Below are positions 45 to 44,447 of a stretch of DNA of 64,000 bases, in pieces. Below the pieces are notes generated by a model, which was not told where the DNA came from, did no database searches, and saw only the letters and a list, made by a program, of their open reading frames with translations. This DNA is from a virus: positions 1 through 64,000 of the IMG/VR virus record IMGVR_UViG_3300049259_000177. The stretch is one strand, 5' to 3'. Both the position numbers and the translations under genes were made by a program. Numbering within the stretch: position 1 is the first letter of the stretch; every line of letters begins with the position of its first letter.

Positions 45-123
45 GTGAGGCTCCTGTCTTGGGCGGCGGGTCGCTCTCCCACCGATGCAAGCATCGTACA
101 CCCGCTTAGCGTCCTTGAGTCAA
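45..123 (-). promoter_or_regulatory. box-A promoter cassette 1 with leader hairpin B
   Basis: TTGACT-N19-TACGAT with CGCTAAGCGGGT in the spacer; hairpin ggtggg-AGAGCGA-cccgcc at 65-83; RBS 51-59. Confidence 0.85.
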
Positions 124-169
124 CCTCCCCGAAGATTCCGGCGCCAGTGCGGGTAGCCGATGCACGTCG

Positions 170-547
170 TCAGGAATCGACGAGAACGACCGGCCCGGCG
201 ACCTCGATCCGGGCGGTGATCGCAGGGAAGCGCTCGCGGGCGGCAGCGAGCGCAGCGTCGAAGTCGAGGTCCGCGTCGAAGATGAAGTTGGCGTTGGAGT
301 TGCCACGCTTGTCCTGGCTGTAGTCGTGCATCGCAAGCGCCGTCCAGCCGTCGCGGTGGTGCAGCAGGGCAGCCGACTGCGCGGTTGTGGACTTCGGGGG
401 CAACTGTCCGTCGATGCGCTCGAACGGCCCCGCCCGGTTGTAGCCGAAGGTGCCCGAGTCGTCCCGGTAGTCGGGCTGCTTGCCGTTGGGCAGCCACAGG
501 AAGTGGCCGAGGTGGGCGTCCCAGCACCCGAAGAACACGGCGATCAT
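170..547 (-). CDS. hypothetical protein
   Basis: MIAVFFGCWD start overlaps upstream stop (ATGA); protein-like composition. Confidence 0.75.
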   Translation of the reverse strand: MIAVFFGCWDAHLGHFLWLPNGKQPDYRDDSGTFGYNRAGPFERIDGQLPPKSTTAQSAALLHHRDGWTALAMHDYSQDKRGNSNANFIFDADLDFDAALAAARERFPAITARIEVAGPVVLVDS

Positions 548-1281
548 GTTGCGCCCCCCGGGCGCGGGTGATCGACTACCCACGCGACGCGCGCCATCTC
601 GGCTCGGACGTGCGGCTCCGTGCACGCCTCCGGGCACTTGTCGCCGCCGTACTCGCCCTGACAACGGCAGCCGCACCCGTGGCACGAGCCGTGGTCGTCG
701 GCCCGGCAGCGGAAGCAGCCGATGCAGCCGTAGAGCCCCGGCAGGCCCTCGTCCATCGCGACCAGCGCCGTCGTGTAGTCGTAGTCGGCGACGACATGCT
801 CGCCTTCCCAGCGCCACTGCGGCGGCTGGATCTGCGGCTTGCCGTCGGCGTCGCGGTGGGTATCGTGCTCGACCTCGTTCCGCGCCCGGATGCGGCTCTC
901 CTCCCGGCCGACGCGGTCGGCGAGCGCGGCGAGATCGGCGTCGGCGTCGCGGTCTTCGTCGACCGTCTCCCACAGCCTGCCGGTCTGGATCTTGATGAGC
1001 ACGTCGAGGAACGCCGCGAGCAGGTGCACCGGGCAGTAATCCCATGTCTCGGTCGGCTCGGGGCCACCCTGCACGTGTAGGCGCCACGGCGCGGAGGCCC
1101 GACAGTGCTCGGCGGTTTCGCACGTCGTCGGCTCGACGATGGCCTCGACCATGACGGTGATGTCGTCGAAATGGTCCGAGATCAGGTGCACGCGCGGATC
1201 GTCGGGGTCGTTGAGGTCTGATGCCGACGGGCACGCCGCCGCATGCTGTTCGTCGAGCGACGTGCCCGTCGGCGGGGTCAC
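544..1281 (-). CDS. hypothetical Cys-rich protein
   Basis: GTGA overlap with upstream stop; CxxC clusters near C-terminus. Confidence 0.7.
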   Translation of the reverse strand: MTPPTGTSLDEQHAAACPSASDLNDPDDPRVHLISDHFDDITVMVEAIVEPTTCETAEHCRASAPWRLHVQGGPEPTETWDYCPVHLLAAFLDVLIKIQTGRLWETVDEDRDADADLAALADRVGREESRIRARNEVEHDTHRDADGKPQIQPPQWRWEGEHVVADYDYTTALVAMDEGLPGLYGCIGCFRCRADDHGSCHGCGCRCQGEYGGDKCPEACTEPHVRAEMARVAWVVDHPRPGGAT

Positions 1282-1637
1282 GGCTGCTTCGCGGACGTCG
1301 GCGGGTGCACCTTGCCGACCTCGGTGTAGCCGAGCGGTTGCACGTTGTTGAACGCTGGGCCCGGCTCGGAGTAGATGAGCATCTGCTGGCCTTGGCCGGT
1401 CGTCCATTCGAGGTACTTGCCGGTGTTCGCGTCCTGGGCGTAGTAACGCTGGCAGTCACCGCCGGAGTAGAACGCCGCATCGACCGACGGGTCCTGGATG
1501 AGCAGGTTGCCATCACTGTCGTCGCGCACGTGCTGTGTAGGCGTGAGCGAGACGCAGTACGACACGGGCAGGCCGCGCGTCACGTAGTAGCCGACCGGAT
1601 CCCCATTGACGTTGCGCAGGTAGCTCTTGCGGCTCAT
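1278..1637 (-). CDS. hypothetical protein
   Basis: ORF track; translationally coupled. Confidence 0.7.
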   Translation of the reverse strand: MSRKSYLRNVNGDPVGYYVTRGLPVSYCVSLTPTQHVRDDSDGNLLIQDPSVDAAFYSGGDCQRYYAQDANTGKYLEWTTGQGQQMLIYSEPGPAFNNVQPLGYTEVGKVHPPTSAKQP

Positions 1638-1680
1638 CGGATGCCGTCCTCTCGTACCTTGCTCTCGGCATTCTCGACCA

Positions 1681-1893
1681 TCACATCTCCCGGTGACGCT
1701 GGCCGCGAAGGTACTGCGCGATGACCTCGCCAGTGCTCTCGTTGACGACGCGCTGAACCTGCCGAGAGGTGTGCGACATCGCCATGCCTCTACGTCGGGC
1801 GGCGTTCTTGCTCAGCCCACGCGGAGCCAAGTCGTCGTTGCGGAAACCGCCCCACGTCGGGTCGTAGCGCTCGACGCGAAACGTGTCAGCCAC
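1681..1893 (-). CDS. hypothetical protein
   Basis: ORF track; fits gene tiling. Confidence 0.6.
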   Translation of the reverse strand: MADTFRVERYDPTWGGFRNDDLAPRGLSKNAARRRGMAMSHTSRQVQRVVNESTGEVIAQYLRGQRHREM

Positions 1894-2218
1894 GGCCGGG
1901 GCTCAACTCGCGGATACGAGCGACCCCGTGCGTGCCGCCCGGCCCGAGCCGGGCATGGTTGGCGCGCAACTTCGCCGTGCACGGGGTACACGCACGTAGG
2001 GTGATCCACTCGTGGGTACCGGCCTGATAGATGACTACCTCGTAGACCTGCTGCCGTTCGCAGCCGACAAAGATCCGAGAGTGGCAGTCGCCCTCGCGGC
2101 CCTCATCACGAACTGGGCGCGGGCTCTCCGGCGTAGTGTGCGGCGGCAGTTGGTAGTCGTGGTCGAACAAGCCCGGGCCGCACGAGCCGGTGCCTTGCTG
2201 TTCGAGAACGTCTCTCAT
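1886..2218 (-). CDS. hypothetical Cys/His protein
   Basis: MRDVLEQQG start with ATGA overlap. Confidence 0.6.
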   Translation of the reverse strand: MRDVLEQQGTGSCGPGLFDHDYQLPPHTTPESPRPVRDEGREGDCHSRIFVGCERQQVYEVVIYQAGTHEWITLRACTPCTAKLRANHARLGPGGTHGVARIRELSPGRG

Positions 2219-2388
2219 CGCCCCACGACCATGCGTGCGGACTCTGGGTGCGTCTCGTACGGGGGCCACGGCAGCCGCGCCACCGCGTCGAGGCGGAGCG
2301 ACGGTGACATCACCTCGCCGTAGACCTCCACCTCCATCCGGGCGGACCGGAGCAGGCAGCGCACCCAGTCCTGGGTCGTCCGCCTCAT
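2215..2388 (-). CDS. small hypothetical protein (57 aa, MRRTTQDW)
   Basis: read by eye; ATGA overlaps at both ends. Confidence 0.55.
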   Translation of the reverse strand: MRRTTQDWVRCLLRSARMEVEVYGEVMSPSLRLDAVARLPWPPYETHPESARMVVGR

Positions 2389-2894
2389 GACTGCTCGGTC
2401 TCAGCGGGCGGTGGCTGTCCGGTGCGCTCCTGTTTGGTGACGAGGCGCCGAACCGCGCGCCCGAGGATCTCGTCGTCGACGTTGAGCGGCTCGCCGTCAC
2501 TGCGGGCTTTGGTTCGGGCTTCGGCTTCACGCAGATGGTCGTAATCGTTCATGACGAACGGCCCGTCGGCGTAGCCGAGCGCGGCGAGCAGTGGTCGCAA
2601 GGCCCGCCACCCACCGACCGGCACGTGCTGCATCCGACAGAAGTCGTGGACGCCGAACATCCGATCGAGTGGAAGCACGCAGTGCCCGAGGTTCGGGAAG
2701 ATCAGCCACCGGCGCCCCCGGTGCTCGGCGATGACAGTCACGTAGCGGGTGCCGTCCCCGGGTGCGTAGACGACTTCGCGGTTGCCCTCGCGCAGTCCGT
2801 ACGCGGCGAGTACCGGGTCGGCGACCTCATGCGCCCAGTCGGTCAGCCACGCACGTTCGGCAAGAGAGCCTGGCGGGAACGGCGTCGGAGTCAT
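2385..2894 (-). CDS. hypothetical protein
   Basis: coupled ORF. Confidence 0.75.
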   Translation of the reverse strand: MTPTPFPPGSLAERAWLTDWAHEVADPVLAAYGLREGNREVVYAPGDGTRYVTVIAEHRGRRWLIFPNLGHCVLPLDRMFGVHDFCRMQHVPVGGWRALRPLLAALGYADGPFVMNDYDHLREAEARTKARSDGEPLNVDDEILGRAVRRLVTKQERTGQPPPAETEQS

Positions 2895-3274
2895 GCGGGC
2901 GGTCCTTGCTCGCCGCCTGGCACGGAGCGCACACCAGACGCCTTCCGGGCGGGCTCAGAAGGCTCCGTTGACTGCCCGGCGAGTTCTTCGGCCACGGTCG
3001 CCGCGCCGATCGGCACGACACCGTCCGGGGTGATCTCGTGGCTGGCGCGGTCCTCGACCGGCAGGCCGAGGGAGAGTCTCTGCATGGCGGCTTCGGCGTC
3101 GAACATGAGCGCCCGCAGGACGCTCGCTTCCTCGGCGGTGGTGAACGACGCGTCGACGGTCACCCGGTGGCGGCTTGCCGTGACGGCGGCGGCGCGGTTC
3201 TTCGCGGCACGCTCGCTCGTGTACCAGCGCACGACGGTGCCGTCGGAGATGGTCGGGGTGACAGTGACGATCAT
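2891..3274 (-). CDS. hypothetical protein
   Basis: coupled ORF with AAAGGA RBS. Confidence 0.75.
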   Translation of the reverse strand: MIVTVTPTISDGTVVRWYTSERAAKNRAAAVTASRHRVTVDASFTTAEEASVLRALMFDAEAAMQRLSLGLPVEDRASHEITPDGVVPIGAATVAEELAGQSTEPSEPARKASGVRSVPGGEQGPPA

Positions 3275-3456
3275 CCTTTGATGACCTCCCAGCCTCCGCA
3301 GCGATTGCCGTTGACGTCCATGAGCACCGCGCGGGTGCCGACGACCGCGCCAGCGGCGTCGACCTGCTCGGCGGCTTCGCGGAGCAGGCGCGCGGTTTCG
3401 GCGGCCGGGTCGTCGAACGCGGCACCGGACATCTTGAGAGACAGGACGAACTGCAT
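3271..3456 (-). CDS. small hypothetical protein
   Basis: coupled ORF ending in a DxNGNxxG motif. Confidence 0.75.
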   Translation of the reverse strand: MQFVLSLKMSGAAFDDPAAETARLLREAAEQVDAAGAVVGTRAVLMDVNGNRCGGWEVIKG

Positions 3457-3480
3457 GATGGCTCCGAAGCGTAGGGCCGG

Positions 3481-4158
3481 TCAGCGACCGCTTGGCGCGT
3501 CAGCCGTCGACGAGTCGCGGATCTCTAGCAGGCGGTGCAGGGCGACAATCGGCGCCGTGTCCAGTGGCAGGTCGATCGCGTGCATGGTGAACCCGTCCTC
3601 GCCGGGCTCCCAGGAGATCTCGTGCCCGCACGGGGCGAACCGGGCGGTGGTGCGGACCGGCTCCTGCTTGGCGATCGTGCCGGGCACTTCGAGGATCGGG
3701 CCGCCCGGCCAGGCAGGCGCGGTCTCGACGACGTCGCGGTACTCGGTGTCGATCTGCCAGGACTCGACGAGTCGCTCGCAGTCGTCGGCCGGGCACAGCG
3801 CGTAGGTACGGGTGAGGCCAAGCGCCCTGCTCGCGCGCTCAACCGCTGCCTTCGCGGCCGGGTCCTCGGCAATGACGCGGTCGGCGATCCGGTTGACGCC
3901 GTGCCAGACCGACGTGTGGTGCATCCCGAACACACGGCCCAACGCGGGCAGTGACAGGTTCGTGCGGACTCGGCACAGGTACATCGCGACGTGCCGAGCC
4001 CATACGAGGCCAGCCATCCGTCGGTCGCCGGTGATGTCGGCCGGGGTGAAGCCGAAGGTCTCGGCGGTCACTTGGATGATGCGCTCGGCCTGGATCTCCC
4101 CGGCGGTGGCCTCGGGCTCGGCGGGTGTGCAGCAGCCGTCGCCGGTGTGCTCATGCAC
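3481..4158 (-). CDS. DnaA C-terminal (domain IV) HTH protein with extra C-terminal domain
   Basis: IIQVTAETFGFTPADITGDRR-x4-VWARHVAMYL-x5-LSLPALGRVFG-x-HHTSVWHGVNRI matches the DnaA domain IV pattern; no AAA+ domain. Confidence 0.85.
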   Translation of the reverse strand: MHEHTGDGCCTPAEPEATAGEIQAERIIQVTAETFGFTPADITGDRRMAGLVWARHVAMYLCRVRTNLSLPALGRVFGMHHTSVWHGVNRIADRVIAEDPAAKAAVERASRALGLTRTYALCPADDCERLVESWQIDTEYRDVVETAPAWPGGPILEVPGTIAKQEPVRTTARFAPCGHEISWEPGEDGFTMHAIDLPLDTAPIVALHRLLEIRDSSTADAPSGR

Positions 4159-4435
4159 CGGATTGCTCGCGTTCCTGCCACTCACGCATCCTGCCTTCCG
4201 GTCCGAGTTCGTAGAGCCGCTTGCACTCGGGACAGACCGGGAACTGCTTGGGATCACGGGTCGGCACCCACACTTTGCCGCAGAGCGCGACGACGGGCTC
4301 GCCGGTCAGCGCGGACTCGGTGGCTTTGCTCTTGTCGACGTAGTGCGCGAACCGTTCGTGGTCGCCGTCGTCGAGTCGGTAGTCGGGCTTGCCGGTGGTG
4401 GTCGTGCCGTGCTCGGTCAGGGTCTCCGTTGTCAT
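4151..4435 (-). CDS. DUF3039-family protein
   Basis: GDHERFAHYV...ESALTGEPVVALCGKVWVP.RDP..FPVCPECK, a conserved actinobacterial family. Confidence 0.85.
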   Translation of the reverse strand: MTTETLTEHGTTTTGKPDYRLDDGDHERFAHYVDKSKATESALTGEPVVALCGKVWVPTRDPKQFPVCPECKRLYELGPEGRMREWQEREQSGA

Positions 4436-4893
4436 GGGCGCATCACGTCCAGTGCCATGAGGCGGGCCGTAAGGCCCTCCCACTCGTCGAGGGTGGCGGC
4501 CAGCAGTCCCAGTCCGCCGGACACGTGCTGGAACCCGGCCTCGTGCAACTTCGCGCGCACAGTCTCCCATCGTTGCTCCCGCGCCGCCTGCTCATCGCGC
4601 TTCTCCTGCGCGGCTACACATGCCTGCGCATAGGTCGCCGGGGTGTAGAGCCGCGACGGGCTCCCGACCCTGACGATCTCGCCATCGGTGACGAGCCGCT
4701 GGATCGCGCGGGTCACCCGACCTTGGAAGGTGCGGCCGGGATGGTAGGGGCCGGTGTATCCCAGTTGCGCCATGACGCGGCGTTCGACGTCGGCCGAGTG
4801 GACATGACCGCGCTCGGCGATCGTGTCGGTCAGGCACAGCCGGGCAGCGTCGAGCACGTTCTCCCACGGCTCGTCATAGAGCGGGTGCGTCAC
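4432..4893 (-). CDS. hypothetical protein, possible winged helix
   Basis: VTRAIQRLVTDGEIVRVG resembles a wHTH wing. Confidence 0.65.
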   Translation of the reverse strand: MTHPLYDEPWENVLDAARLCLTDTIAERGHVHSADVERRVMAQLGYTGPYHPGRTFQGRVTRAIQRLVTDGEIVRVGSPSRLYTPATYAQACVAAQEKRDEQAAREQRWETVRAKLHEAGFQHVSGGLGLLAATLDEWEGLTARLMALDVMRP

Positions 4894-5252
4894 GACTCGT
4901 CCATCCCTCGCACCCAGCCGATCACGTCGGGCCAGCGCTTCGACGGGATCGCGTTGTCGATCCCTGCGATGCGACCAGCCTCGTGCATGTTGTGCCGCTT
5001 GGCACTGAGGTTGCGCTGGGCAGCCCGAAGCGCCTCGATGGCCTCGGCGACACCTGCCTCGGCCTCACGGAAGTCACGCACGGCGGTGACGAGCGGGCCC
5101 GTCGTGGCGACCGTCGGTTTGTCACCAACCGTCCAGCCCTTCGGGTAGGTCGCCCCGCAGTTGTTGACCGCGCAGTAGCGCTCGGGGATCGAGCCGTCGG
5201 CGATCGGCGCGTCGAACCACCGGTGAATGTGCCGGTCCGTGGTGGCGGTCAT
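4890..5252 (-). CDS. hypothetical protein
   Basis: coupled ORF; N-terminal H-H-C-C motif. Confidence 0.7.
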   Translation of the reverse strand: MTATTDRHIHRWFDAPIADGSIPERYCAVNNCGATYPKGWTVGDKPTVATTGPLVTAVRDFREAEAGVAEAIEALRAAQRNLSAKRHNMHEAGRIAGIDNAIPSKRWPDVIGWVRGMDES

Positions 5253-34111: not shown

Positions 34112-34123
34112 GCGCAAACCACT

Positions 34124-34158
34124 AAGGGCCCTGGGCAAGTCGCCCGGGGCCCTTTCTT
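34124..34158. terminator. hairpin terminator between convergent genes
   Basis: AAGGGCCCTGGGC-aagtc-GCCCGGGGCCCTT followed by TCTT. Confidence 0.8.
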
Positions 34159-34764: not shown

Positions 34765-35738
34765 CAGGTCGTCACCACTCCCGATGCGTTCAGCGTGCAG
34801 CCCGGTCCGTTCGCCGACGCGGCGAGCACCTCGTTTGCGGCCATCGGCTGGCGCAGTTGGTACTGGCTGGTCGACTTGGCCGGAACGACCAGTCCGGGCA
34901 CGAGGATCGAGCCGCCGTCCTTGACGCGGAACGTGTGCTCGTACAGGTCGTCGTTGACCATCTCGATCTCGGTGATGGTGGTCGACACTCCGGCGCCACC
35001 GGAGGTATAGAGCGCCGTCGGCGGCGCCGCTTGCGGCGCCGCCGGGACAAGGAAGTTGGCGTACACGTAACCGGTGCCGACGTTGTTGTAGACCTGTGAC
35101 GCGAGGCTCTGTGTTCCCGCCGTCACCATGCTCCGATAGAAGAGGTACAGGTAGGCGCCAGCCGCCGCCGGGCCGCCGCCGACAAGGGTCCAGCCCGTCG
35201 GCGTGGTCACGGTGGCGGAGTTGCTGACGTGCACCTGCACGGCGGTGCCGAAACTCTTGGCGAACAGGTTGGGCGAGGAGGCAACACTCGTGCCTCCTGT
35301 CACCGTAACCCGGCTGAGCGCATACCAGCCGAGCACCGGGTCGCCGCCGGAGTAGACGGCGTAGACGAGTTGCGCTGAGTTGGTATTCGCGAAGCCGGGG
35401 GTCCACACGAACATCGTCGCCTCGTTGCCGTCGGCGACTTTGTAGTAGATCCACACGCTGCCGACAGCGGCGCTCTGTCCCCCGGGATAGAGCGGCCCAA
35501 TGCGGGTGTAACTCGCGAGCGCGCTGTCATCCTGTGTCGCCCCGGGGATAGATGATGACGAAGCGACGGTGAAGGCCAGGATGACGAAGTCGCCCGGCAG
35601 GATCGTCCCGAGTGTCACACCGTAGGACTGCGCGGAGCCGAGATTGCTGAGCCCGCTGGTACGTAGCGCGGGAGCGACCGGGGCGCTGTCGACGACGGCA
35701 GCGGCGCACAGCCGGGTCGGCGCAGCGGAGGCGACCAT
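34764..35738 (-). CDS. minor tail protein
   Basis: repeated P.GWT../VWIYYKVA beta-domains. Confidence 0.75.
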   Translation of the reverse strand: MVASAAPTRLCAAAVVDSAPVAPALRTSGLSNLGSAQSYGVTLGTILPGDFVILAFTVASSSSIPGATQDDSALASYTRIGPLYPGGQSAAVGSVWIYYKVADGNEATMFVWTPGFANTNSAQLVYAVYSGGDPVLGWYALSRVTVTGGTSVASSPNLFAKSFGTAVQVHVSNSATVTTPTGWTLVGGGPAAAGAYLYLFYRSMVTAGTQSLASQVYNNVGTGYVYANFLVPAAPQAAPPTALYTSGGAGVSTTITEIEMVNDDLYEHTFRVKDGGSILVPGLVVPAKSTSQYQLRQPMAANEVLAASANGPGCTLNASGVVTT

Positions 35739-36806
35739 CTACCACGCTCCCATGAACGTCATGGTCGCCTCGGCGTAGTACTCGACGTCGGTGACGAAGC
35801 GCTGCCACACACCGCCAGGCACCCCCGCGTCAGTACCGTCGCCACCCTCGAAGTGCCGGTACCACAGGGTGCCGGGGTTGGTGCCGGTCATGTGCTCGGC
35901 GATTTGGAACCCGTAGTTGTTGTTCTTGTTCTGATGACGCACTTGAAGCACGAGCCACCAGTCCGGCTGGTTATCGCCGAGCGGCGTGTGCTGCACGTTG
36001 CCCGACCCGTTGTAGAACCCGCTCATCCGATTCTGCAACGTGTTCATGTCGGGGTTGCCGCCAGCGTTCGACGGAAGCGAGGCGGTCAGGTTTGGCTGAT
36101 TGATGAAGTCCAGCGGGCCGAAGTACTTGTCGTTGGCTCCCCCGACCCGCGACGACATGTCAAGGGCTCCGGCGAGACTGAGCCCGGCACGGGCGAGGCC
36201 GCCCGCGACGCGCGTCTGGCCGGGCGTGAGCGCATCGCCGTTGCAGGTGAACACCGGGGAGTTCGCGATGTCGCCGTTGCGGACCGCGAGGAGCAGCCAG
36301 TTGGACGGCGGCGGCTCCCACGTGCCGGTGTAGGCCGCGATGTAGAAGTTACCGGGGACCGAGTTCTGGACGTCGCCGACGGGCAGCGCGTAGTAGAGCG
36401 CCTCCCACAAGTTGAGTACCACACCCTGCGCGGTCCAGTTCCGGGCGGGGGCGCCGCCGACCACGTTCAGAGGTGTCCCGGCGGCGGGCACCGTGATGTC
36501 GAAGTAGCCGCTCGTAGCCGCGTCGGTGGCGTGCCCGGCGGAGATGACGATGAAGCGCTGCGTCCAACTGAGGCTGTAGTTGACGTCGAGGGAGACGACG
36601 CCACCGCCGGTCACGTTGAACCCGGCCCGCAGTCCGTAGAGCGCGGACGGCGGGGGGGTGCCGAGGACCACCGGGGTGCCGCCAGGCGCGAGGGTGTAGA
36701 CCTGGCCGCCTTTGACGTAGAGCAGGGTGCCCTGACCTGCGGCCGGGGCGGCCGGGTCGGCGGCGTTCTCACCGAGGAGCAGGGCTCCCGAGACGGGTAG
36801 GGCCAC
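35739..36806 (-). CDS. tail fibre / receptor-binding protein
   Basis: C-terminal knob-like SGFY...QIA...LWYR...W motif. Confidence 0.75.
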   Translation of the reverse strand: MALPVSGALLLGENAADPAAPAAGQGTLLYVKGGQVYTLAPGGTPVVLGTPPPSALYGLRAGFNVTGGGVVSLDVNYSLSWTQRFIVISAGHATDAATSGYFDITVPAAGTPLNVVGGAPARNWTAQGVVLNLWEALYYALPVGDVQNSVPGNFYIAAYTGTWEPPPSNWLLLAVRNGDIANSPVFTCNGDALTPGQTRVAGGLARAGLSLAGALDMSSRVGGANDKYFGPLDFINQPNLTASLPSNAGGNPDMNTLQNRMSGFYNGSGNVQHTPLGDNQPDWWLVLQVRHQNKNNNYGFQIAEHMTGTNPGTLWYRHFEGGDGTDAGVPGGVWQRFVTDVEYYAEATMTFMGAW

Positions 36807-36811
36807 CCTGA

Positions 36812-38227
36812 CTAGACCTTGCCGCTCACGACGACGTGGTAGGCGTTGAGCGCCGGAGGCGTACCGAAACGCAGCGTGATGGTGTTCGCGTCGGTGACGT
36901 CCCACTCGGTCAACGTGTTCTTGCCGTCGGAGTTGCGCCGCACCGACACGGCGGCGACCTGCGTGCTGCCGAGGTTGTGCGGGATCGCGTACACAGTCGC
37001 AGCCCCGTCGCCGACATCCTGCTCGTAGGCGCGGACCGCCCCGGAGATCTTCGAGACGGCGATCGCGGCGGCGGCCGCAACGTCCGCATTGACGATGGTT
37101 CCGTCGGCGATCTTCGCTGACGTGACGGCACCGTCGGCGATGTTGGTCGTGCCGATCGCCAGTGCTGCGATGTCAGTGCCGACGATGGTTCCGTCGGCGA
37201 TCTTCGCTGACGTGACGGCACCGTCGGCGATCTTCGCGTTGGTGATCGCAAGGTCGGCGACGTTGGTAGTGGCGATCGTCAGGTTGGCGATCTTCGCGCC
37301 AGTGATCGTCGCGTCCTGCATGTCACCGGCGACGATCGTCCCGTCGGCGATGTGTGCGCTCGTCACACCACCGGCGGCGAGACCGATCTGCGGGTTGACG
37401 CCGCCGGTCGAGGTGATCGGCCCAGCGCCGGTGACGGATTGCACGCCGTCGACGGGGCTCTGAAGTTCCTGCCAGTTGGCGAGGACCGTCGGGTCGGCGC
37501 CTTGCAGGATGAACGAGTCGTGGATGTCGGTTCGGATCGCGACGTCGCCGGGCTCGGCAGCGAGCGCGAGCATCGCGGCCTGGCTGGCGACGACAAACGT
37601 GTTGGTGATCGCGAGCGCCGGAAGCAGGCCGGTCGGCAGTAGTCCGTTCGCGTCGAGCCCGGCGAAGCCGTTGGCGACGTTGCGGCCACCGACGATGTTG
37701 GTGACGCGTGCATCGGTGGCGAAAGCGAAGTCGGAGATCGTCGCGGCGGTCTGCGTGCCCGTGTGGTTGGCGCGGGCGAGCGGGTCGACCGCCAGTTTGC
37801 TCAGCAGGATCGCGGCACCGGCCGCAATGTCGGCGTCGACGATGTTGAGCGCGGCCAGTTTCGCTTTCGCGATTGCGGCACCGGCCGCAATGTCGGCGTC
37901 GACGATGGTTCCGTCGGCGATCTTCGCTGACGTGACGGCACCGTCGGCGATCTTGCCGGTGGTCACGGCGAGCGGAGCGACCGTCGGGTTCGGGTAGTTG
38001 CCCGCCAGGTCGCCTCCGGCCGGGCCGGACGGAGCGGTCGAGCCGAACACGACGGACTGTACCTGCGCGCCGTCCCAGTAGCGGATCTGGTCGGTCGAGG
38101 TGTTGTACCAGACCCGGCCCTCGTCGGCGGCTATCAGCCCGGACGGGTCGGCGGCGAGCGCCTGCAACTTGAGGTTGAAGATCTGGAACCCCGCCATGTC
38201 GAGGTTGTTGGTTGCCGGGATAGCCAC
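36812..38227 (-). CDS. tail fibre protein with VTSAKIADGT repeats
   Basis: 10-aa repeats, NGFAGLDANG, ASQAAMLALAAEPGDVAIRTD, C-terminal HNLG domain. Confidence 0.85.
   Translation of the reverse strand: MAIPATNNLDMAGFQIFNLKLQALAADPSGLIAADEGRVWYNTSTDQIRYWDGAQVQSVVFGSTAPSGPAGGDLAGNYPNPTVAPLAVTTGKIADGAVTSAKIADGTIVDADIAAGAAIAKAKLAALNIVDADIAAGAAILLSKLAVDPLARANHTGTQTAATISDFAFATDARVTNIVGGRNVANGFAGLDANGLLPTGLLPALAITNTFVVASQAAMLALAAEPGDVAIRTDIHDSFILQGADPTVLANWQELQSPVDGVQSVTGAGPITSTGGVNPQIGLAAGGVTSAHIADGTIVAGDMQDATITGAKIANLTIATTNVADLAITNAKIADGAVTSAKIADGTIVGTDIAALAIGTTNIADGAVTSAKIADGTIVNADVAAAAAIAVSKISGAVRAYEQDVGDGAATVYAIPHNLGSTQVAAVSVRRNSDGKNTLTEWDVTDANTITLRFGTPPALNAYHVVVSGKV
37091..37951. repeat. three identical 51-bp direct repeats
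   Basis: 37091-37141, 37181-37231, 37901-37951. Confidence 0.9.
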
Positions 38228-38235
38228 CGTTGCTC

Positions 38236-38904
38236 CTAGATCTCGACGCTGCCGGACATCGGTGCACCGAAACGGACCTGCACAGTGTCCGCGTCGACGT
38301 ATTCCAGGTCGACCATTCGCAGTTCGCGGCCGGTCGAGTCGCGGACGGTCACCGGGAGGATCGCGTGCTTGTTGTGCTGGATCGTCCAGACTGCGCTCGG
38401 CATCGGCACGTCGTAGTGGTCGCGCTGGTAGGCGCCGAACGGACCGGGCTCGCCCTGGATGCCCTGCTCTCCCCGCTCTCCCTGGTCGCCTTTGGAGGAC
38501 CACAGCCGCCAGTACACCGAGTCGAAGGCGGCCATCGGCGGCAGGTCGATCGGCGTGCCCCACGTCGCGCCGTCGAAGTGCACGAGGGACTGCGCCACGT
38601 ACGCCGTGCCGGGCTGCCACTCGCCGGTGTCGACCCACGGGGGACCCGGCGGGCCCGTGCGACCCGGCGGGCCCGGCTGGCCGGTATCGAGCACAGTGAC
38701 GTCGGTTTCGACGTCGGCGCTGCCGTCAACAGGGATCGTCGAGCCCGCTGGCTGGTCGCCGACCACGACAAGGCTCGGGGCGCCCGGCGCAGGCTCCTCG
38801 GTGACGACGCCGGGCTCTGGGTCGGCGTCCTCGACGACGACAGTCGTCGGCGGCGGCTCCGGGTCGCCGACGACGACGATCGAGCCGTCGGAACCGGCCG
38901 TCAC
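38236..38904 (-). CDS. collagen-like minor tail protein with CBM5/12-like module
   Basis: GXY runs; GEWQPGTAY...VHFDGATW; WTIQHN C-terminal domain. Confidence 0.75.
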   Translation of the reverse strand: MTAGSDGSIVVVGDPEPPPTTVVVEDADPEPGVVTEEPAPGAPSLVVVGDQPAGSTIPVDGSADVETDVTVLDTGQPGPPGRTGPPGPPWVDTGEWQPGTAYVAQSLVHFDGATWGTPIDLPPMAAFDSVYWRLWSSKGDQGERGEQGIQGEPGPFGAYQRDHYDVPMPSAVWTIQHNKHAILPVTVRDSTGRELRMVDLEYVDADTVQVRFGAPMSGSVEI

Positions 38905-39284
38905 ACCGTCACCCTCGGGCGAGTGACGCTCGTGTCGATGGACTGCGCCCCGGCGGCGAACTTCACCGGCACGCCGCCGTCCGGCGGATAGAGGAACAGG
39001 TCGTAGACACCGGCACGCCGCACGGTCCAGCCCTGCTCCTCGGCGAGCGTGAGCGTGATCGTCCCGGCCGGGCCACCCAGTTCGATCAGGCCCTCGCCGT
39101 CACCCGGAGCCGTGTCGAAGGCGACGATCAGGTGACTGTCACCGGCCGCCGGGCGAGACTCGGCCCGGGCGGTGTAATCGGAGATGTCGACCGGGCTACC
39201 GTCGGCGTGCTCCCAGGTGAACGGCAGCCGGAACGGCAGGCCCCACGTGATCGTGAAGTCGTGCACGACGATCGGCTTGGTCAC
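38901..39284 (-). CDS. BppU-N-like fibre/baseplate adaptor
   Basis: PVDISDYTA...GTITLTL...GVYDL; leaderless after class-C promoter 39291-39325. Confidence 0.65.
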   Translation of the reverse strand: MTKPIVVHDFTITWGLPFRLPFTWEHADGSPVDISDYTARAESRPAAGDSHLIVAFDTAPGDGEGLIELGGPAGTITLTLAEEQGWTVRRAGVYDLFLYPPDGGVPVKFAAGAQSIDTSVTRPRVTV

Positions 39285-39331
39285 GAGAGCAGGCTCCCCG
39301 ATCGAGGGGGTTAGTGTCGCCCCGACCCCGC

Positions 39332-39399
39332 TTGCGCTCTCACGCTAAGCGGGTGTACGGTCTTGGTTGTGCGGGAGAGCGACCCGCCGGACAGGAGAC
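39332..39399 (+). promoter_or_regulatory. box-A promoter cassette with hairpin B
   Basis: TTGCGC-N18-TACGGT; hairpin 39371-39387; 29 nt identical to the 33108 cassette. Confidence 0.88.
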
Positions 39400-39403
39400 G
39401 ATC

Positions 39404-39757
39404 ATGGCGAAAGGCAACTGGCGCCGCCGGGACTTCGGCTGGCTGCGCGCCGACGGCGAGGCGTTCCTAGAGCGAGGCGCCCCAATGAGCGACACCGGCA
39501 AGCCCGCGTGGCTGGTCTGGATTCGCGCGCTCGACAGCGAGATCGAGATCGGCGAGGGCGGCACCGTGCTTACCCGCGATGGCTGCGACCCGGTCCGCGC
39601 GCTCGGCGAACTGTGCGGCAACGAGCCGTCGCAGGTCCGCCCCGACGGCCCGTGGTTCATTCACCGTGGCGACGAGGGCTGGCTGGCCGACGCGAAGGCC
39701 GCCGCCGAATACCACCTCGCGCGTCGTGACGAGAAGGCCGACGCGGTGACGCGCTAG
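39404..39757 (+). CDS. hypothetical protein
   Basis: ATG after ACAGGAG. Confidence 0.8.
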   Translation: MAKGNWRRRDFGWLRADGEAFLERGAPMSDTGKPAWLVWIRALDSEIEIGEGGTVLTRDGCDPVRALGELCGNEPSQVRPDGPWFIHRGDEGWLADAKAAAEYHLARRDEKADAVTR

Positions 39758-39809
39758 ACCAGCGCCGACGTGACCTACGGTGGCCGGGAGATCTCGACGA
39801 GAGGACGCC

Positions 39810-40205
39810 ATGACCACCGACGCCGCACCGCTCACCCGGGCCAAGGCCGTCATTCGCAAGCAGCCCGCAGCAGACGGCAGGGGCCAGCCGTGGGAAGCGC
39901 ACGGCTGGCAGTGCCCGTGCGGCAGCGACAACGGCAAGACCGTGATAGCGACGAAGCAGGACGCGGAGAACGCCGCCGACCAGCACACTCGCGAGTACCA
40001 CCTGTCGACGGTGCTTGCCGACCTCGGGTCGCTGCACAGCCGCGACCAACTCAAGGTGGGCGCCACGTTCGTCGGCGACATCGTGCGCTTCGTCAAGGAA
40101 ACCGAGAAGGGCACCTACGTCGAGACTGCCGCGCACGGCCGCTACGTCATCGACGATTCGAGTCAGGCGAAGCCGTACACCGATGGCCCAGCGCGGCCGG
40201 AGTAG
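39810..40205 (+). CDS. hypothetical protein (class-C promoter 39748-39781)
   Basis: GAGAGGA RBS; C-x-C..H motif. Confidence 0.7.
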   Translation: MTTDAAPLTRAKAVIRKQPAADGRGQPWEAHGWQCPCGSDNGKTVIATKQDAENAADQHTREYHLSTVLADLGSLHSRDQLKVGATFVGDIVRFVKETEKGTYVETAAHGRYVIDDSSQAKPYTDGPARPE

Positions 40206-40527
40206 CCGCCGGGCCGAGGAACTGCAACGCGAGGCGCTCGACGAGAAGGCGAAGCCTGTCCGGCTCGAATGCGTGCCGTGCGGGCACCGGTGGCGGATGC
40301 AGCGGCACGACACGTGGAACGAGACCTGCCACGCGGCCGTGAGGTTCCTCGACCAGCACCAACAGACTTGCGAGGCGTATCAGCGTCTCGCCGAACGGAT
40401 GGCAGCGGAGGCCGCAGGTGATCCCAGCACTGGGCAAGGCGACGTACCCGGACGAGAGCAAGGCGACGCCAGTGCCGATCCTGTTCCTCGACACCGAAAC
40501 TACGTCCCTGCGCCCGCCGTGGCGTAG
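40183..40527 (+). CDS. zinc-finger hypothetical protein
   Basis: CVPC...H...C. Confidence 0.55.
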   Translation: MAQRGRSSRRAEELQREALDEKAKPVRLECVPCGHRWRMQRHDTWNETCHAAVRFLDQHQQTCEAYQRLAERMAAEAAGDPSTGQGDVPGREQGDASADPVPRHRNYVPAPAVA

Positions 40528-41092
40528 CGCACCTCGGCGGCCGTGGGAGATCGGCGCGATCCGACGCGAGACGAACGGCTCCGAGCAGGAGTGGCAGTGC
40601 TTCGTCGAGGACGTCGACCTGACCGACGCTGACCCGATGTCACTGTCGTTCGGCCGGTTCTATGACCGACACCCGCAGTACGCGGGTCATATTGTCCACG
40701 ACCCGGACGCGCGAGTGCGTCGTGACGGCGCGGGCTGGCGGATGGACTCAGAGGCCGAAGTCGCGCTGCTCGTCGAGTGGCTCGCGCGCGGCGCCCATAT
40801 CGTGGGCACCGTGCCCGACTTCGACGTGACGACGGGCGACCAGATGCTTGAGCGTTGGGGGCTCGCGTGGCCCGCGCACTACCACCTGATCTGCGCCGAA
40901 GTGTACGCAGCCGGAGCGATCGGCTGGGTGCCGCCGTACGATTCGAAGGAACTCTCGCTGGCGTTGGGCGTCGACCCGTCGGCGTACACCGCACACGAAG
41001 CGCTGGAAGACGCTCGCTGGGCGAGGGATCTTTTCGACGCCACCCGGACGCATACCGGCACTCGCGTCGCTCAGCCGTCGACGCGACACTAA
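40472..41092 (+). CDS. DnaQ-like (DEDDh) 3'-5' exonuclease
   Basis: FLDTETT, P.FD, HEALEDA. Confidence 0.85.
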   Translation: MPILFLDTETTSLRPPWRSAPRRPWEIGAIRRETNGSEQEWQCFVEDVDLTDADPMSLSFGRFYDRHPQYAGHIVHDPDARVRRDGAGWRMDSEAEVALLVEWLARGAHIVGTVPDFDVTTGDQMLERWGLAWPAHYHLICAEVYAAGAIGWVPPYDSKELSLALGVDPSAYTAHEALEDARWARDLFDATRTHTGTRVAQPSTRH

Positions 41093-41170
41093 CCAGCCCC
41101 TCGGGGGACGCTACGCGCGGCACAGTAGTCGCGCCGCGACGCCTTCCGCCATGCACCGAGGAGCGCACCC

Positions 41171-41893
41171 GTGGCAGTCACCACCCACAACGGCCGTACC
41201 TTCGACCGGCGCGTGCACTTCGACGAGAAGTCGCGCGCGTTCCCGATCCGCACCGTCATCGGGCCGGTCGCACGAGTGCCGAAGCAGTGGCGTCCCGGCA
41301 TGACCCTGGACCAAGGCGAGGAAGGCACTTGCGTAGGCCACGGCTGGGAGGCTGAACTACTCGCCAGCCCGGTGCGAGTGAAGGTTGCCGATGCGGCGGC
41401 CGGTCACCAACAAGCCGTCGGGATCTACGAGCGCGCAAAGCAACTCGACGACGAGCCGGGCGAGGCGTACGAGGGCACCTCGGTGATCGCCGGTGCGAAA
41501 GTGCTCGTGGAGCGCGGCTACATGGCGGAGTACCGGTGGGCGTTCGGCATCGACGACCTGATCGACGCCGTCGTCGCGCACGGCCCGGTGGTCGTCGGCA
41601 CCGACTGGCACGACGGCATGTATCAAACGCGGCCCAGCGGGTTGATAGAGGTCGGTGGGCCGGTCGTCGGCGGCCATTGCTGGTTGATCTACGGCTACCA
41701 CCCCGCCATGCGCATCCGGGGCGAGGACTGGAAAGCGCGATACGAGGTCCTGCGTATGAGGAATTCATGGGGGCCGACCTATGGACTCGGAGGTTCCGGG
41801 CTCATCAAGGTCGAGGACATGGACGCCCTGCTGAAAGCGCAGGGTGAATGCTGCGTCCCCACTCGCCGAGCCTACGGACCAGCCGCCGCTTAA
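41171..41893 (+). CDS. papain-like (C1-type) cysteine peptidase
   Basis: DQG.EGTCVG, GGHC.LIYGY, RNSWG give Q-C-H-N catalytic set; class-C promoter 41078-41112. Confidence 0.85.
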   Translation: MAVTTHNGRTFDRRVHFDEKSRAFPIRTVIGPVARVPKQWRPGMTLDQGEEGTCVGHGWEAELLASPVRVKVADAAAGHQQAVGIYERAKQLDDEPGEAYEGTSVIAGAKVLVERGYMAEYRWAFGIDDLIDAVVAHGPVVVGTDWHDGMYQTRPSGLIEVGGPVVGGHCWLIYGYHPAMRIRGEDWKARYEVLRMRNSWGPTYGLGGSGLIKVEDMDALLKAQGECCVPTRRAYGPAAA

Positions 41894-42036
41894 GGGCCGC
41901 GCCGCCCGCCCTGCACAGCCAGTCCGATCAGCCAGATCACGAGCATGACCAGCGCGACCCACCACAGGACGTGCACGGCAAAGCCGACGCCGCCGAGGAT
42001 CAGCGCGAGCAGTAAGACCAGCAGGAGAGCGCCCAT
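41890..42036 (-). CDS. small actinobacterial hydrophobic membrane protein (48 aa)
   Basis: MGALLLVLLLALILGGVGFAVHVLWWVALVMLVIWLIG; ATG 7 nt after TAACGT. Confidence 0.75.
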   Translation of the reverse strand: MGALLLVLLLALILGGVGFAVHVLWWVALVMLVIWLIGLAVQGGRRGP

Positions 42037-42046
42037 ACTCGGCACG

Positions 42047-43633
42047 TTACCCGGCTGGGCCCTCGCCAACGCCTGCTTCGAGGTCCGCCACGGTGTGGAT
42101 GGGGTCGTCGCGGTAGAACCCGCAGCCGGGAGCCTGGCACTCCGGGTTCGACTTACGCCGCTTGTCCTGCATGAACTCGTGTGGGCCGTCGACCTCCTGC
42201 TCGGCCTCCGGGGTGTGTGCCACCTCGGGCGCCTGGGCGTCAGGAGCGGGCTCCGCCGTTGTCGGCTCGGCGGCGGCCACGGCTTCGCTGTCAGCGGCAC
42301 CGTCGACAATCTCCGCGTCCTCGACGTCGCCGGGCTCGCCCGCGTCCTCGCCGCCGGTGCCGGACAGTACGGCGTCCAGGTCGGCGATCACCGGCGCGGA
42401 CTCGTCGCTCGCCCACACGGCGTAACGTTCCGCCTCGGCCCGGCGGGATTCGTCGCCGCGCAGTTTCTCGACGATCATCGAACGAAAGCCGTGCACCATC
42501 GGCGCAAGCGCGTTCAAGGGGAAGTCCTCGATGTTCTGTCGCCGGGCACGCACGAAGCGGCTGGCGAGTCCCGCCGGGGTGTTGCCCATCTGCTCGGCCT
42601 GCCACCCAAGTTCTACGAGCCAGGCGGCCCGGGCGGCTTTCTCGTCGAGTACCTCGCCCGTCGTCCCGTCGACGGGCTCCTGCTGCTCAGCGGTGGCGTC
42701 GGCGGGCTTCCCTGGCTCCGTCGGCGGTTCCGGGGCCGCAGCGGGTTCCTGAGGGGCACCGGGGGCCGTCTGCGCCGCCTTGGCACGAGCGAACGCTTCC
42801 TTGCGCTGCGCGGCCCGCTCTCGCTCCTCCCGGGCCTTCTCCTCCATGTCGGCGCGGTGCATCTCCTCAAAGGTGACAGTCCCAGCGAACTCGTCGGGGA
42901 ACACCTTGCGCAGCACCAGTGCTTCACTGCATTTCGCAAGCATGTGGTGGAAGCCCTTCTGCCACATCTCGCCGAGTTCCATGATCTGCGTGCCGTCCTC
43001 GCCGACGACCGGCACCTTGCGACGACTACCCTGTGCGCCCTGCCACTCGAACTTCGGGTAGAGCGGCGCGTACATGCCCCAGTGGGCGACGGCGTCGGAG
43101 ACGACCATCTGGCCGAAAGCATCGTAGTGACGGATGACGGCCTTGGCTGCGCCCGGGTAGCCCCGCGATTCGGGCCACTCGTCGTACCACACGCGCTGCA
43201 TGACGCCGGTGGCCTCGTTGTAGCGCCAGCAAGCGGGGTCGTCGTCGTCGCCGGTCCACAGCCAGGTGGCGGAGCCGACGAGGAGTCTGGTGCGGGCAGC
43301 GATCGTGCGATACCCATCAATCCCGACCTGAATGGTGAACTTTGCCTTGTCGCCCTCGCCACGCTGAATGAGGTACGCCTGCCTGCGCCACGGATCTACG
43401 TTCATCCGCTGGCAGACGTGCAGGAAGACTCTGAGGTGCGGGCGGGCGCGCTCATCGTCCGGGTTGGCGTTGGTGATTGCCGACAGCGCGGCTTTCTGCT
43501 CCGGGGTGAGCCGGGTCTGGTTCGGTTCGAGGGTCAGCGAGCCAAGGGTGACTACACCTTCCGGCTCAGGAATCTCGTCGGTGGTCGGGATCTGCTGTTC
43601 CTGCGGTGGCGCCTCGGCCGTAGTGCTGGTCAC
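42047..43633 (-). CDS. bet: Bet/RecT-family single-strand annealing recombinase with long C-terminal extension
   Basis: DPWRRQAYLI.R...TIQVGIDGYRTIA.R...MW.K...MLAKCSEALVLRKVFP. Confidence 0.9.
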   Translation of the reverse strand: MTSTTAEAPPQEQQIPTTDEIPEPEGVVTLGSLTLEPNQTRLTPEQKAALSAITNANPDDERARPHLRVFLHVCQRMNVDPWRRQAYLIQRGEGDKAKFTIQVGIDGYRTIAARTRLLVGSATWLWTGDDDDPACWRYNEATGVMQRVWYDEWPESRGYPGAAKAVIRHYDAFGQMVVSDAVAHWGMYAPLYPKFEWQGAQGSRRKVPVVGEDGTQIMELGEMWQKGFHHMLAKCSEALVLRKVFPDEFAGTVTFEEMHRADMEEKAREERERAAQRKEAFARAKAAQTAPGAPQEPAAAPEPPTEPGKPADATAEQQEPVDGTTGEVLDEKAARAAWLVELGWQAEQMGNTPAGLASRFVRARRQNIEDFPLNALAPMVHGFRSMIVEKLRGDESRRAEAERYAVWASDESAPVIADLDAVLSGTGGEDAGEPGDVEDAEIVDGAADSEAVAAAEPTTAEPAPDAQAPEVAHTPEAEQEVDGPHEFMQDKRRKSNPECQAPGCGFYRDDPIHTVADLEAGVGEGPAG

Positions 43634-44013
43634 GTGCTCCTCCTGGTTGCCGGGTCGCTCTCCGGCGATCGGTCTGTCCTCGATGATGGGGTACGGGTAC
43701 GACAGTTTGGCGCGACATAGTCATTCGCAAGTTGCAGCACGACGTTGCACGCGATGGCCCACAGGTCGGGCCGGGCCTGCCGCAACCGGAGGGCGCGCGC
43801 GACCTCGCGGCGCTTGTCCTCGGGAATGCGCTGCCAGCACATCGCGCACACGACGTTGCCGTAGCGCACGGACAGGCCGCAGCCATGTGTCGGACAGTGG
43901 TGACGGCCACGGGTCTCGACGAACGGCTGGGTATAGACGCCGGGCGCCCGCCACTCGCGTGGCTGGGTCTCCGGCGGCAGTTCTTCGAGGTAGGCGATCT
44001 CGGCGGCGGTCAT
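43630..44013 (-). CDS. zinc-finger hypothetical protein
   Basis: CP..GC...C..CW..IP. Confidence 0.65.
   Translation of the reverse strand: MTAAEIAYLEELPPETQPREWRAPGVYTQPFVETRGRHHCPTHGCGLSVRYGNVVCAMCWQRIPEDKRREVARALRLRQARPDLWAIACNVVLQLANDYVAPNCRTRTPSSRTDRSPESDPATRRST
43636..43716 (-). promoter_or_regulatory. class-C promoter plus hairpin-B leader of bet
   Basis: GTCGCG-N22-CATCAT; gccgg-AGAGCGAC-ccggc at 43649-43666; AGGAGG. Confidence 0.75.
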
Positions 44014-44057
44014 GTCGGGGCGCCGGACCCGTAACGGCCTATGCGGAAGGGCGCCGC

Positions 44058-44369
44058 TCACCGCGAGCAGGCGCCGGTGTGCCCGGGCGGCTTGCGCGGC
44101 CCCGGTTCACCGGCGGGGTCGCCGATGCCGCAGAAGGGGCACAGCGCACGCTCGCGCTCGGAAGAGGCGAGCATCTCGACGACGATGCGGCGGGTCAGGT
44201 CGTGCGGCAACCGAACCCCGGCAGCCTCAGCGGCGCCGGACCACTCCTCCTCGGTGAAGTGCGCAGCCTTGTCGGCGGTGATGTCCATGCCGGACAGCCG
44301 CAGGTACAGACTGAACGCCTTGTTGCGGCGCGCGACCGTCTCGCGCTCCTCGGCGACGGTGGTGATCAC
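44058..44369 (-). CDS. hypothetical protein
   Basis: AGGAGG RBS; first gene after box-A promoter. Confidence 0.75.
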   Translation of the reverse strand: MITTVAEERETVARRNKAFSLYLRLSGMDITADKAAHFTEEEWSGAAEAAGVRLPHDLTRRIVVEMLASSERERALCPFCGIGDPAGEPGPRKPPGHTGACSR

Positions 44370-44377
44370 GGATCTCT

Positions 44378-44447
44378 CCTCCTGGCGGGCCGGTTCGCTC
44401 GCCAGCCCTCACCACGGAGTGTACCCGCTTAGCGTGACAGTCCGCAA
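44378..44447 (-). promoter_or_regulatory. box-A promoter cassette with hairpin-B variant
   Basis: TTGCGG-N18-TACACT; gggctgg-CGAGCGAA-ccggccc at 44387-44408. Confidence 0.8.

Follow-up and report, generated by a model that had tools for sequence, protein, structure and literature searches.

The DNA analysed here, called the window below, comprises the first 64 kb of the viral contig G000 (IMG/VR record IMGVR_UViG_3300049259_000177; 114,594 bp, linear, 68% GC and 88% complete according to CheckV). This contig encodes a major head protein, a portal protein, an intein-bearing large terminase, tail proteins, RecT, WhiB and an Rpf-like transglycosylase, a gene content that points to a large tailed phage with an actinobacterial host, and its genes lie nearly all on the minus strand, apart from three plus-strand islands. 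An initial annotation had drawn attention to a short box dispersed over the window inside promoter-like sequences. We describe here this 12-bp box, CGCTAAGCGGGT, and the composite cassette to which it belongs, in which a promoter-like unit carrying the box in its spacer is followed by a leader with a hairpin and a ribosome-binding site.

The box cassettes of G000

When at most one mismatch was allowed, the box was found ten times in the window, at 100, 6903, 11224, 25533 and 44423 on the minus strand and at 23233, 31947, 32499, 33081 and 39343 on the plus strand; eight of these copies are exact and two have one mismatch. Shuffled DNA contained on average 0.36 matches and at most 2, and none of 100 shuffles reached 10, so that an equal frequency in shuffled DNA, which the initial annotation had named as a possible refutation of its proposal, was not observed. 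The whole contig carries 16 exact copies of the 12-mer, compared to 0 for the reversed control pattern, and three copies with one mismatch. The coordinates of the boxes listed initially were correct; the copy at 6903, however, has one mismatch (TGCTAAGCGGGT) and is not exact, and that at 25814 has two mismatches (TGCTAAGCGGAT) instead of one. The box is largely asymmetric, yet it holds a 4-1-4 partial dyad, CGCT-A-AGCG. Its orientation follows the direction of local transcription in 18 of the 19 copies, the exception being 23233 (plus), and the copies cluster in three hubs, at 25.5-25.8 kb, 31.9-33.1 kb and 95.3-96.8 kb. The cassettes and single modules of the window are the following (ORF, open reading frame; SD, Shine-Dalgarno sequence; HTH, helix-turn-helix; TerS, terminase small subunit).

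42-123 (minus): full cassette; -35 TTGACT 123-118, box 111-100, -10 TACGAT 98-93, hairpin ~83-65 with loop AGAGCGA, SD 55-51, GTG at ~44; cargo gene cut by the contig end
6848-6926 (minus): full cassette; -35 TTGACG 6926-6921, one-mismatch box 6914-6903, -10 TACGAT 6901-6896, hairpin 6887-6869, SD 6863, ATG 6850; cargo, a run of small ORFs ending with the DnaA-IV HTH gene 3481-4185
11173-11246 (minus): full cassette; -35 TTGCAC 11246-11241, box 11235-11224, -10 TACGCT 11222-11217, hairpin 11208-11194, SD 11186, ATG 11175
23233-23249 (plus): box-only copy followed directly by TAATCT, which is -10-like; no -35 and no leader; antisense to the adjoining minus-strand genes (TerS-like 23445-24149)
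25478-25555 (minus): full cassette; -35 TTGCCA 25555-25550, box 25544-25533, -10 TACGCT 25531-25526, hairpin 25517-25497 with loop ACGAGCGTG, SD 25491, ATG 25480
25814-25825 (minus): degenerate box with two mismatches, abutting TTGAC, upstream of ORF 25757-25539
31838-31879 (minus): leader without box, downstream of a GACGCG-N20-TAGCGT motif; hairpin 31879-31858 with loop AGAGCGAA, SD, GTG 31840 of a 464-aa exonuclease-like gene
31947-31958 (plus): box-only copy with one mismatch in a divergent intergenic region, followed by a perfect terminator-like hairpin, before gene 32104-32706
32499-32510 (plus): exact box-only copy inside ORF 32104-32706 (read A-K-R-V), co-oriented with transcription
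33070-33145 (plus): full cassette; -35 TTGCAC 33070-33075, box 33081-33092, -10 TACGAT 33094-33099, hairpin 33108-33124, SD 33130, ATG 33143
39332-39406 (plus): full cassette; -35 TTGCGC 39332-39337, box 39343-39354, -10 TACGGT 39356-39361, hairpin 39371-39387, SD 39393, ATG 39404
43631-43666 (minus): leader without promoter, within the 3' end of the preceding ORF (GTGA overlap); hairpin 43666-43649 with loop AGAGCGAC, SD, GTG 43633 of RecT
44367-44447 (minus): full cassette; -35 TTGCGG 44447-44442, box 44434-44423, -10 TACACT 44423-44418 (the last T of the box is the first base of the -10), hairpin 44408-44387, SD 44383, GTG 44369; heads a gene block ending in RecT

The hairpin next to the box at 31947, CCGACAACCCGTTACGGGTTGTCGG at 31975-32010, is perfect and is a candidate bidirectional terminator between this box and gene 32104-32706.

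A full cassette thus reads TTGnnn, 5-6 variable nt, the box, one purine, TACnnT, 8-9 variable nt and the first arm of a 4-7-bp stem, followed by the loop (A)GAGCGA(C), the complementary arm, 3-9 nt, the SD sequence ACAGGAG, 5-9 nt and the start codon. The box occupies the position between TTGnnn and TACnnT in 13 copies genome-wide, seven in the window and six beyond, and the TTGnnn hexamer was found in 11 of these 13 cassettes. The spacing between -35 and -10 is 18 bp in nine of them, 19 bp in three and 17 bp in one, and the distances from the -10 to the stem (8-9 nt), from the stem to the SD (3-9 nt) and from the SD to the start codon (5-9 nt) are fixed within these ranges throughout. The 12 bases of the box are constant, while the bases that separate the box from the -35, and the hairpin from the -10, vary. 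Five copies in G000 are box-only, one of them inside an ORF, and box-only copies are present in a related phage (G002) too.

These data confirm the initial observation of a repeated box promoter module and extend it to a leader with hairpin and SD, to further copies outside the window and to related phages. Seven copies had been placed between hexamers with rather long spacers, and the spacer indeed measures 18 bp at 11224, 25533, 33081, 39343 and 44423 and 19 bp at 100 and 6903. The cassettes had been said to point at genes, and all seven in the window face a start codon 57-70 nt downstream. The near-identity of cassettes with unrelated cargo was also found again, 33081 and 6903 being 97.7% identical over 44 nt and 33081 and 39343 sharing two blocks of 29-30 nt. 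Finally, the TAA of the box does serve as the stop of an upstream gene for the coding-type ORFs 32766-33086 (plus) and 25757-25539 (minus), a by-product to be expected at 68% GC, where a frame running into the box meets its first stop there.

Leader hairpins and boxes in related phages

No cultured phage gave a DNA match to 20 kb of the window (megablast). The nearest capsid is that of Streptomyces phage Gilgamesh (42% identity), and this nearest cultured relative was without the leader motif. Pattern scans found four further lineages with the same architecture: G001 (127 kb, flagged as a provirus, 95% complete), G002, G003 and G004 (fragments of one phage), G006 (87 kb) and L075 (Ga0233375_1003016, a 6-kb fragment). 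The proteins that G000 has in common with G001, G002 and G006 are 27-65% identical, short segments of tail fibres excepted, and L075 has no proteins in common with it; a further contig of 6 kb, G005, encodes proteins 40-63% identical to those of G000. Reference bacterial genomes contained 0 matches to G000-type or G001-type cassettes, so that no host or prophage copy was found. A metagenome scan for box plus leader returned nine contigs with one true cassette, in L075; six of the nine showed one identical context of ~100 nt around the match on contigs of ~60% GC, two others were without cassette architecture, and both groups were rejected. A general leader scan of viral contigs gave 38 loci, mostly single chance matches, among which G006 alone was genuine beyond the known relatives.

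The whole phage family has the leader in common, with an unchanging loop, (A)GAGCGA(C), and a stem free to covary. The loop followed by the ribosome-binding site (GAGCGA-N5-16-AGGAG) occurs 26-41 times per contig in G001-G004, compared to 0-3 for the reversed control. For the SD-associated GAGCGA motifs of G000, collected with no stem filter, the mean stem was 5.9 bp when each motif kept its own arms and 3.2 bp when arms were swapped, and 0 of 5000 permutations reached the observed pairing in each of G000, G001 and G002. An alignment of 36 distinct hairpins from three genomes had 81% of its cells paired versus 52% in shuffles; double-sided changes in the stem numbered 56 against 20.8 expected, a value that 0 of 500 shuffles reached, and the score collapsed when the register was slid. 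Covarying arms around an invariant loop indicate a hairpin formed in a single strand rather than a protein-bound DNA dyad, and this hairpin is not a terminator, as it has no U-tract. Rfam, at its gathering threshold, gave 0 matches in the window.

Hairpins with a loop complementary to that of the leader were also observed. On the minus strand of the window, a hairpin GGGG-UCGCU-CCCC lies at 44464-44652, in the non-coding gap 44370-44634, and another with a 9-bp stem and the loop CAUCGCUC lies at 45274-45299, in the non-coding gap 45106-45652; in G001, a hairpin with a 9-bp stem and the loop UCGCUCG is present in non-coding DNA at 79423. Such hairpins are possible trans-acting partners of the leaders; it should be noted that the output of the search for them was dominated by the reverse strands of the leaders themselves. 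Two further minus-strand hairpins lie beyond the window. In one, at 67050-67079 of the genome (L011:3050-3079), within the 3' part of the major head gene, a GAGCGA loop is closed by a perfect AT-rich stem of 12 bp (CGTGATAACATT / AATGTTGTCACG), which is odd for a 68% GC genome, and the other, at 96143-96162 (L012:12143-12162), is an orphan of the leader type, CCGCC-AGAGCGAC-GGCGG, located in an ORF with no start codon after it.

By contrast to the hexamers and the RNA loop, which are constant, the spacer box is replaced in each lineage:

G000: CGCTAAGCGGGTG
G002: CGCTAAATGnnTG
G001: cTTAAATACCGG
G006: TAAnnnnnGC
L075: TTAGCCTGTG

In every lineage TAA (or TTAG) stands 7 nt before TACnnT, and the skeleton T-22, A-20, G-13, TAC is common to all. 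The spacer holds 17.6, 21.5 and 18.3 bits of information in G000, G002 and G001, respectively, whereas the -35 window has 3.7-5.2 bits and the -10 has 7.5-9.1 bits. The exact G000 box is also present twice in G005, once at the syntenic site before the terminase block.

Box and leader can be dissociated. In G002, a box promoter without leader directly precedes tRNA-Val, and the protein gene after this tRNA has a leader and no promoter; in G000, leaders without box precede RecT, the exonuclease-like gene and a gene at 65.4 kb. These separable modules indicate that the box belongs to transcription initiation and the hairpin to the starts of protein-coding genes. G002 also carries 13 tRNA genes in an array with GAGCGAC leaders in between (L060:7000-12000) and, elsewhere, GC-rich elements with a core resembling a tRNA T-arm (GGTTCGnnACC) immediately 5' of leaders without promoter, a hint that the 5' ends of leaders may arise by processing of the tRNA type.

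Proposed mechanism and alternatives

We propose, with a probability of about 60%, that the cassette is a promoter for the host sigma-A, gated by a lineage-specific DNA-binding factor and joined to a family-wide RNA leader. RNA polymerase carrying the housekeeping sigma factor of the host would recognise TTGnnn and TACnnT across the 17-19-bp (mostly 18-bp) spacer, and the 12-bp box, at about -25 to -14, would be the docking site of one lineage-specific factor that switches the set of about 13 promoters together. The invariance of the box amid variable neighbours, the box-only copies and the relatives' own boxes in the same position support the view that the spacer box behaves like the binding site of one dedicated factor. 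Because the -35 and the -10 look self-sufficient and the box lies between them, a repressor occluding the polymerase is slightly favoured over an activator. The transcript is predicted to begin 1-3 nt before the hairpin, with its ribosome-binding site 3-9 nt after it. The leader may protect this 5' end, or its loop may be recognised by a family-wide factor, either a protein or a nearby RNA with a complementary loop, which would then set translation or mRNA stability. We infer the promoter activity, the binding of a protein to the box, the sign of the regulation and the role of the hairpin from the sequence.

Several observations weigh against this proposal. The -35 hexamers match TTGACA at only 3-5 positions, a scan of 25001-45000 for promoters of the E. 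coli consensus called 0 cassettes, its criteria being too strict for these hexamers, and the transcription start is itself a predicted one. Folding energies of single leader sequences were no better than those of shuffles (z from +0.35 to -2.85). The spacer of G006 is much looser (6.9 bits), which implies that a box reader is not obligatory for the family. In L075, four cassettes lie within 6 kb (925-4908), three with TTAGCCTGTG-type spacers and one with the exact G000 box, a mixture pointing to two regulons within one phage or to the exchange of a cassette between phages.

The search for a reader of the box also weighs against it. About 80 of the roughly 150 ORFs of G000 were screened, only some of them against both Pfam and PHROGs, and no box reader could be assigned among them; the only DNA-binding candidates were the Xre-HTH, DnaA domain-IV, WhiB and TerS-like proteins. 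Three of these had been put forward in the initial annotation. The first, encoded at 16871-17602, is an Xre-type HTH protein without homologue in the relatives or cultured phages searched. The DnaA-IV protein (3481-4185) exists, but it is a true DnaA domain IV found in G000 only, and WhiB (30087-30332) exists too, but only in G000 and G006 and not in G001, so that these two, present in one and two of four lineages, respectively, were rejected as family-wide readers. The TerS-like protein (g53, 23445-24149) was rejected as well, its homologues being annotated as terminase small subunits or HTH DNA-binding proteins and abutting the large subunit (TerL) in Arthrobacter phages. The genes in the hubs of clustered boxes are all ORFans (without relatives) in Pfam and PHROGs. 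No repressor of the gp71 type (N-terminal HTH plus stoperator domain) was present among the ORFs screened, a screen that is not exhaustive. Tyrosine and serine integrases (PF00589, PF07508) gave no matches in the genomes searched, which leaves a classical lysogenic immunity repressor without its usual context, and no sigma-70 region 4 was detected in G000 or G001. These contigs, 62-95% complete, provide no support for lysogeny based on an integrase or for a sigma factor of the phage.

Activation of the MerR type across a long spacer, as initially suggested, found no support. MerR-type promoters combine a 19-20-bp spacer, a dyad operator and a MerR-family activator, whereas the spacer is here 18 bp in most cassettes and MerR proteins (PF13411) had no match in G000, G001, G002 or G006. 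An 18-bp spacer is ordinary for actinobacterial sigma-A promoters.

The cassettes had also been regarded as a portable module acting as a recombination joint. In favour of this, cassette copies share perfect blocks of 39-72 nt before unrelated cargo, the identity ending at the cassette edges; the copy at 77808 (minus), outside the window, is 100% identical to 39343 over 72 nt and is a mosaic of 39343 and 33081. The G000-type box among the three others of L075 could reflect exchange between phages, and the exact box is common to G005, although its proteins are only 40-63% identical to those of G000. These shared blocks show homogenisation among the copies, fitting gene conversion. However, the leader is kept before the orthologues in relatives for three of three testable leader genes, compared to three of 48 genes without leader, and the one orthologue that is boxed in G000 (g68) bears in G002 the latter's own box type, which fits evolution in place. 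Moreover, all listed leader motifs occupy collinear positions in G002, G003 and G004, with no rearrangement seen. Orthologues that keep their leader and their own type of box point to stable, gene-linked elements evolving in concert and not to hopping cassettes. The idea of a recombination joint is thus weak, and it is very improbable that the elements serve mainly to shuffle accessory genes, with regulation being secondary. If, on the other hand, there were no dedicated regulator, and the host RNA polymerase holoenzyme itself read the box as one element of a very strong, extended promoter, the uniformity of the box arising from selection for strength and from gene conversion, then the skeleton shared by all lineages, the architecture of G006 with its loosely constrained spacer, the homogenisation just described, the RecT and exonuclease-like genes of the phage and the lack of a reader among the ORFs screened would all be in keeping. 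Yet gene conversion would even out the flanks too, whereas the flanks vary and the 12 bases are fixed, and box-only copies without -35, -10 or leader, one of them in an ORF, keep all 12 bases. The lineages, furthermore, differ in the box and not in the hexamers, and the information of the spacer exceeds that of both hexamers, a situation for which we know of no precedent in recognition by polymerase alone. We regard this explanation as unlikely.

The opposite sign of control is an activator site, at which a phage factor in the spacer would adapt or appropriate the host sigma factor, as MotA/AsiA of T4 does, the cassettes remaining silent until the factor is made. Some copies are without recognisable -35 (96676 and 104711 in G000, the AGCGCC/GGCGCC variants in G001), and WhiB, encoded in G000 and G006, belongs to a family of sigma-A-binding factors. 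A precedent from actinobacteria is the sigma adaptation by PafBC in mycobacteria, where an activator inserted between sigma-A and the DNA reads an element shortly before the -10, at -26, in promoters of the type tGTCgg-N10-tAnnnT with no -35 (PMC8635444). The cassettes resemble these promoters in carrying a specific element in the stretch from the usual -35 position to the -10. They differ in that most have a correctly spaced TTGnnn (11 of 13) and none contains the PafBC motif; no PafBC-like, MerR-like or sigma-like protein was detected in our searches, and WhiB is missing from G001 although this contig is 95% complete. Such an activator therefore appears quite unlikely. Still less can be said for box and -10 being read as a promoter by an RNA polymerase or sigma factor that the phage itself encodes, a reading that we consider extremely improbable. 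The promoters of T7, T3 and SP6 are conserved and differ between relatives in few positions, as do the ~19 conserved bases here, and G000 has very large ORFs (943 and 2703 aa) without assigned function. But in all lineages the hexamers TTGnnn and TAnnnT are 17-19 bp apart, as fits sigma-A, the 943-aa ORF is without Pfam match, hence without a detected T7-like polymerase domain, and neither G000 nor G001 encodes a detectable sigma-70 region 4.

The initial interpretation is thus retained for a repeated promoter module whose box resembles the site of one factor. An extension of the sigma-A promoter with a box-bound factor, which we put forward tentatively and hold to be doubtful, is two-tier control, in which the lineage-private box would be an immunity-like determinant of specificity, in large actinophages in whose contigs no integrase was detected, and the GAGCGAC loop a family-wide RNA operator read in trans by an RNA or protein of the phage; the complementary-loop hairpins in the non-coding gaps at 44.4-45.3 kb would be candidate trans RNAs. 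If true, the phage would encode a global post-transcriptional regulon of a hitherto undescribed kind.

Gene programme and related systems

A second promoter-like motif, GACGCG-N20-22-TAnnnT, occurs in 12 strict copies, 11 of them intergenic, compared to 0 for the reversed control. Copies of this class lie at the following positions.

3468-3501, window
16850-16883, window
17609-17642, window
31901-31940, window
39748-39781, window
58580-58611, window
59585-59616, window
64891-66363, genome
94309-94342, genome

The motif precedes head, tail and terminase genes, and also the leaderless starts of 3271-3456 and 15676-16842 and the Xre-type HTH gene 16871-17602. Two spacers of this class contain ACACTAAGCC, which resembles the core of the box. 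The box cassettes, for their part, stand at the start of most blocks of non-structural genes. They had been proposed to be an early or host-takeover module; their place before non-structural blocks is compatible with an early or middle class, which it fits but does not prove.

With regard to known systems, the units that Arbiol et al. are said to have described in 2010 in T4-type phages (PeSL, promoter-early stem-loop) reportedly consist of repeated promoters and stem-loops that flank small accessory genes with identities of recombination size, the stem-loop being a terminator placed before an early promoter. The cassettes are likewise repeated promoter-plus-stem-loop units with long mutual identity; their hairpin, however, lies after the promoter and before the SD, and has no U-tract. 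In phage P1, which does not integrate, the single repressor C1 acts on many scattered asymmetric operators over the promoters of unrelated operons. The box shares with these operators its dispersal, its asymmetry and its overlap with promoters of unrelated operons, but no C1-like protein was identified among the ~80 ORFs screened.

The operators and stoperators of the temperate Cluster A mycobacteriophages, with their cognate repressor (L5 gp71), are short asymmetric sites of 12-13 bp, present in more than 20 copies at promoters and at non-promoter sites, whose orientation follows transcription and whose specificity differs between related phages (PMC9283540). The G000 box is similarly short, asymmetric, dispersed, co-oriented (18/19) and lineage-specific. 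It differs in that most copies lie in a -35/-10 spacer, only about five being elsewhere, in its unrelated sequence, in its coupling to a conserved RNA leader, and in that neither a gp71-like repressor nor an integrase was found in our screens. In Cluster K, the start-associated sequence (SAS) is a 13-mer, GGGATAGGAGCCC, that includes the SD and lies 3-8 bp before start codons, and the extended element (ESAS) consists of a pair of imperfect inverted repeats of 17 bp, conserved in sequence, around a variable spacer; their function is unknown and thought to be translational, and they are kept before the same gene families in related phages (PMC3203893). The G000 leader is also start-associated and linked to gene families (3/3 vs 3/48). 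By contrast, its sequence (stem-(A)GAGCGA(C)-stem-N3-9-ACAGGAG) is not that of SAS, its conservation is the reverse of that of ESAS, with variable, covarying arms of 4-7 bp and an invariant loop, and it is usually fused to a promoter.

Mycobacteriophages of Clusters A, K and O and T4-type phages already show the general design, so that a specialist will be only moderately surprised: the composite promoter-operator-leader cassette is real, and as a phage-wide switch it is not unprecedented in kind. Repeated control modules are nevertheless the main handle on regulation in uncultured phages, nearly all regulated genes being ORFans. The family offers a natural experiment, in which the hexamers and the RNA loop stay constant and the box is replaced in each lineage, at 27-65% identity of the shared proteins, as would be expected of a site co-evolving with its reader; with more complete genomes, the reader should then be identifiable as a protein whose phylogeny follows the type of box. 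The invariant loop and free stem of the leader hairpin make it a compact candidate for an RNA operator, and in practice the cassettes offer ready-to-use parts, probably strong and switchable, for gene expression in high-GC actinobacteria.

Two minor observations concern the terminase genes. The large terminase (genome 91723-94203; L012:7723-10203) contains an intein-like insert with PHROG matches of the DnaB-helicase type, and the TerS-like gene, at 23445-24149 in G000, lies far from TerL in G000, G001, G002 and Gilgamesh.

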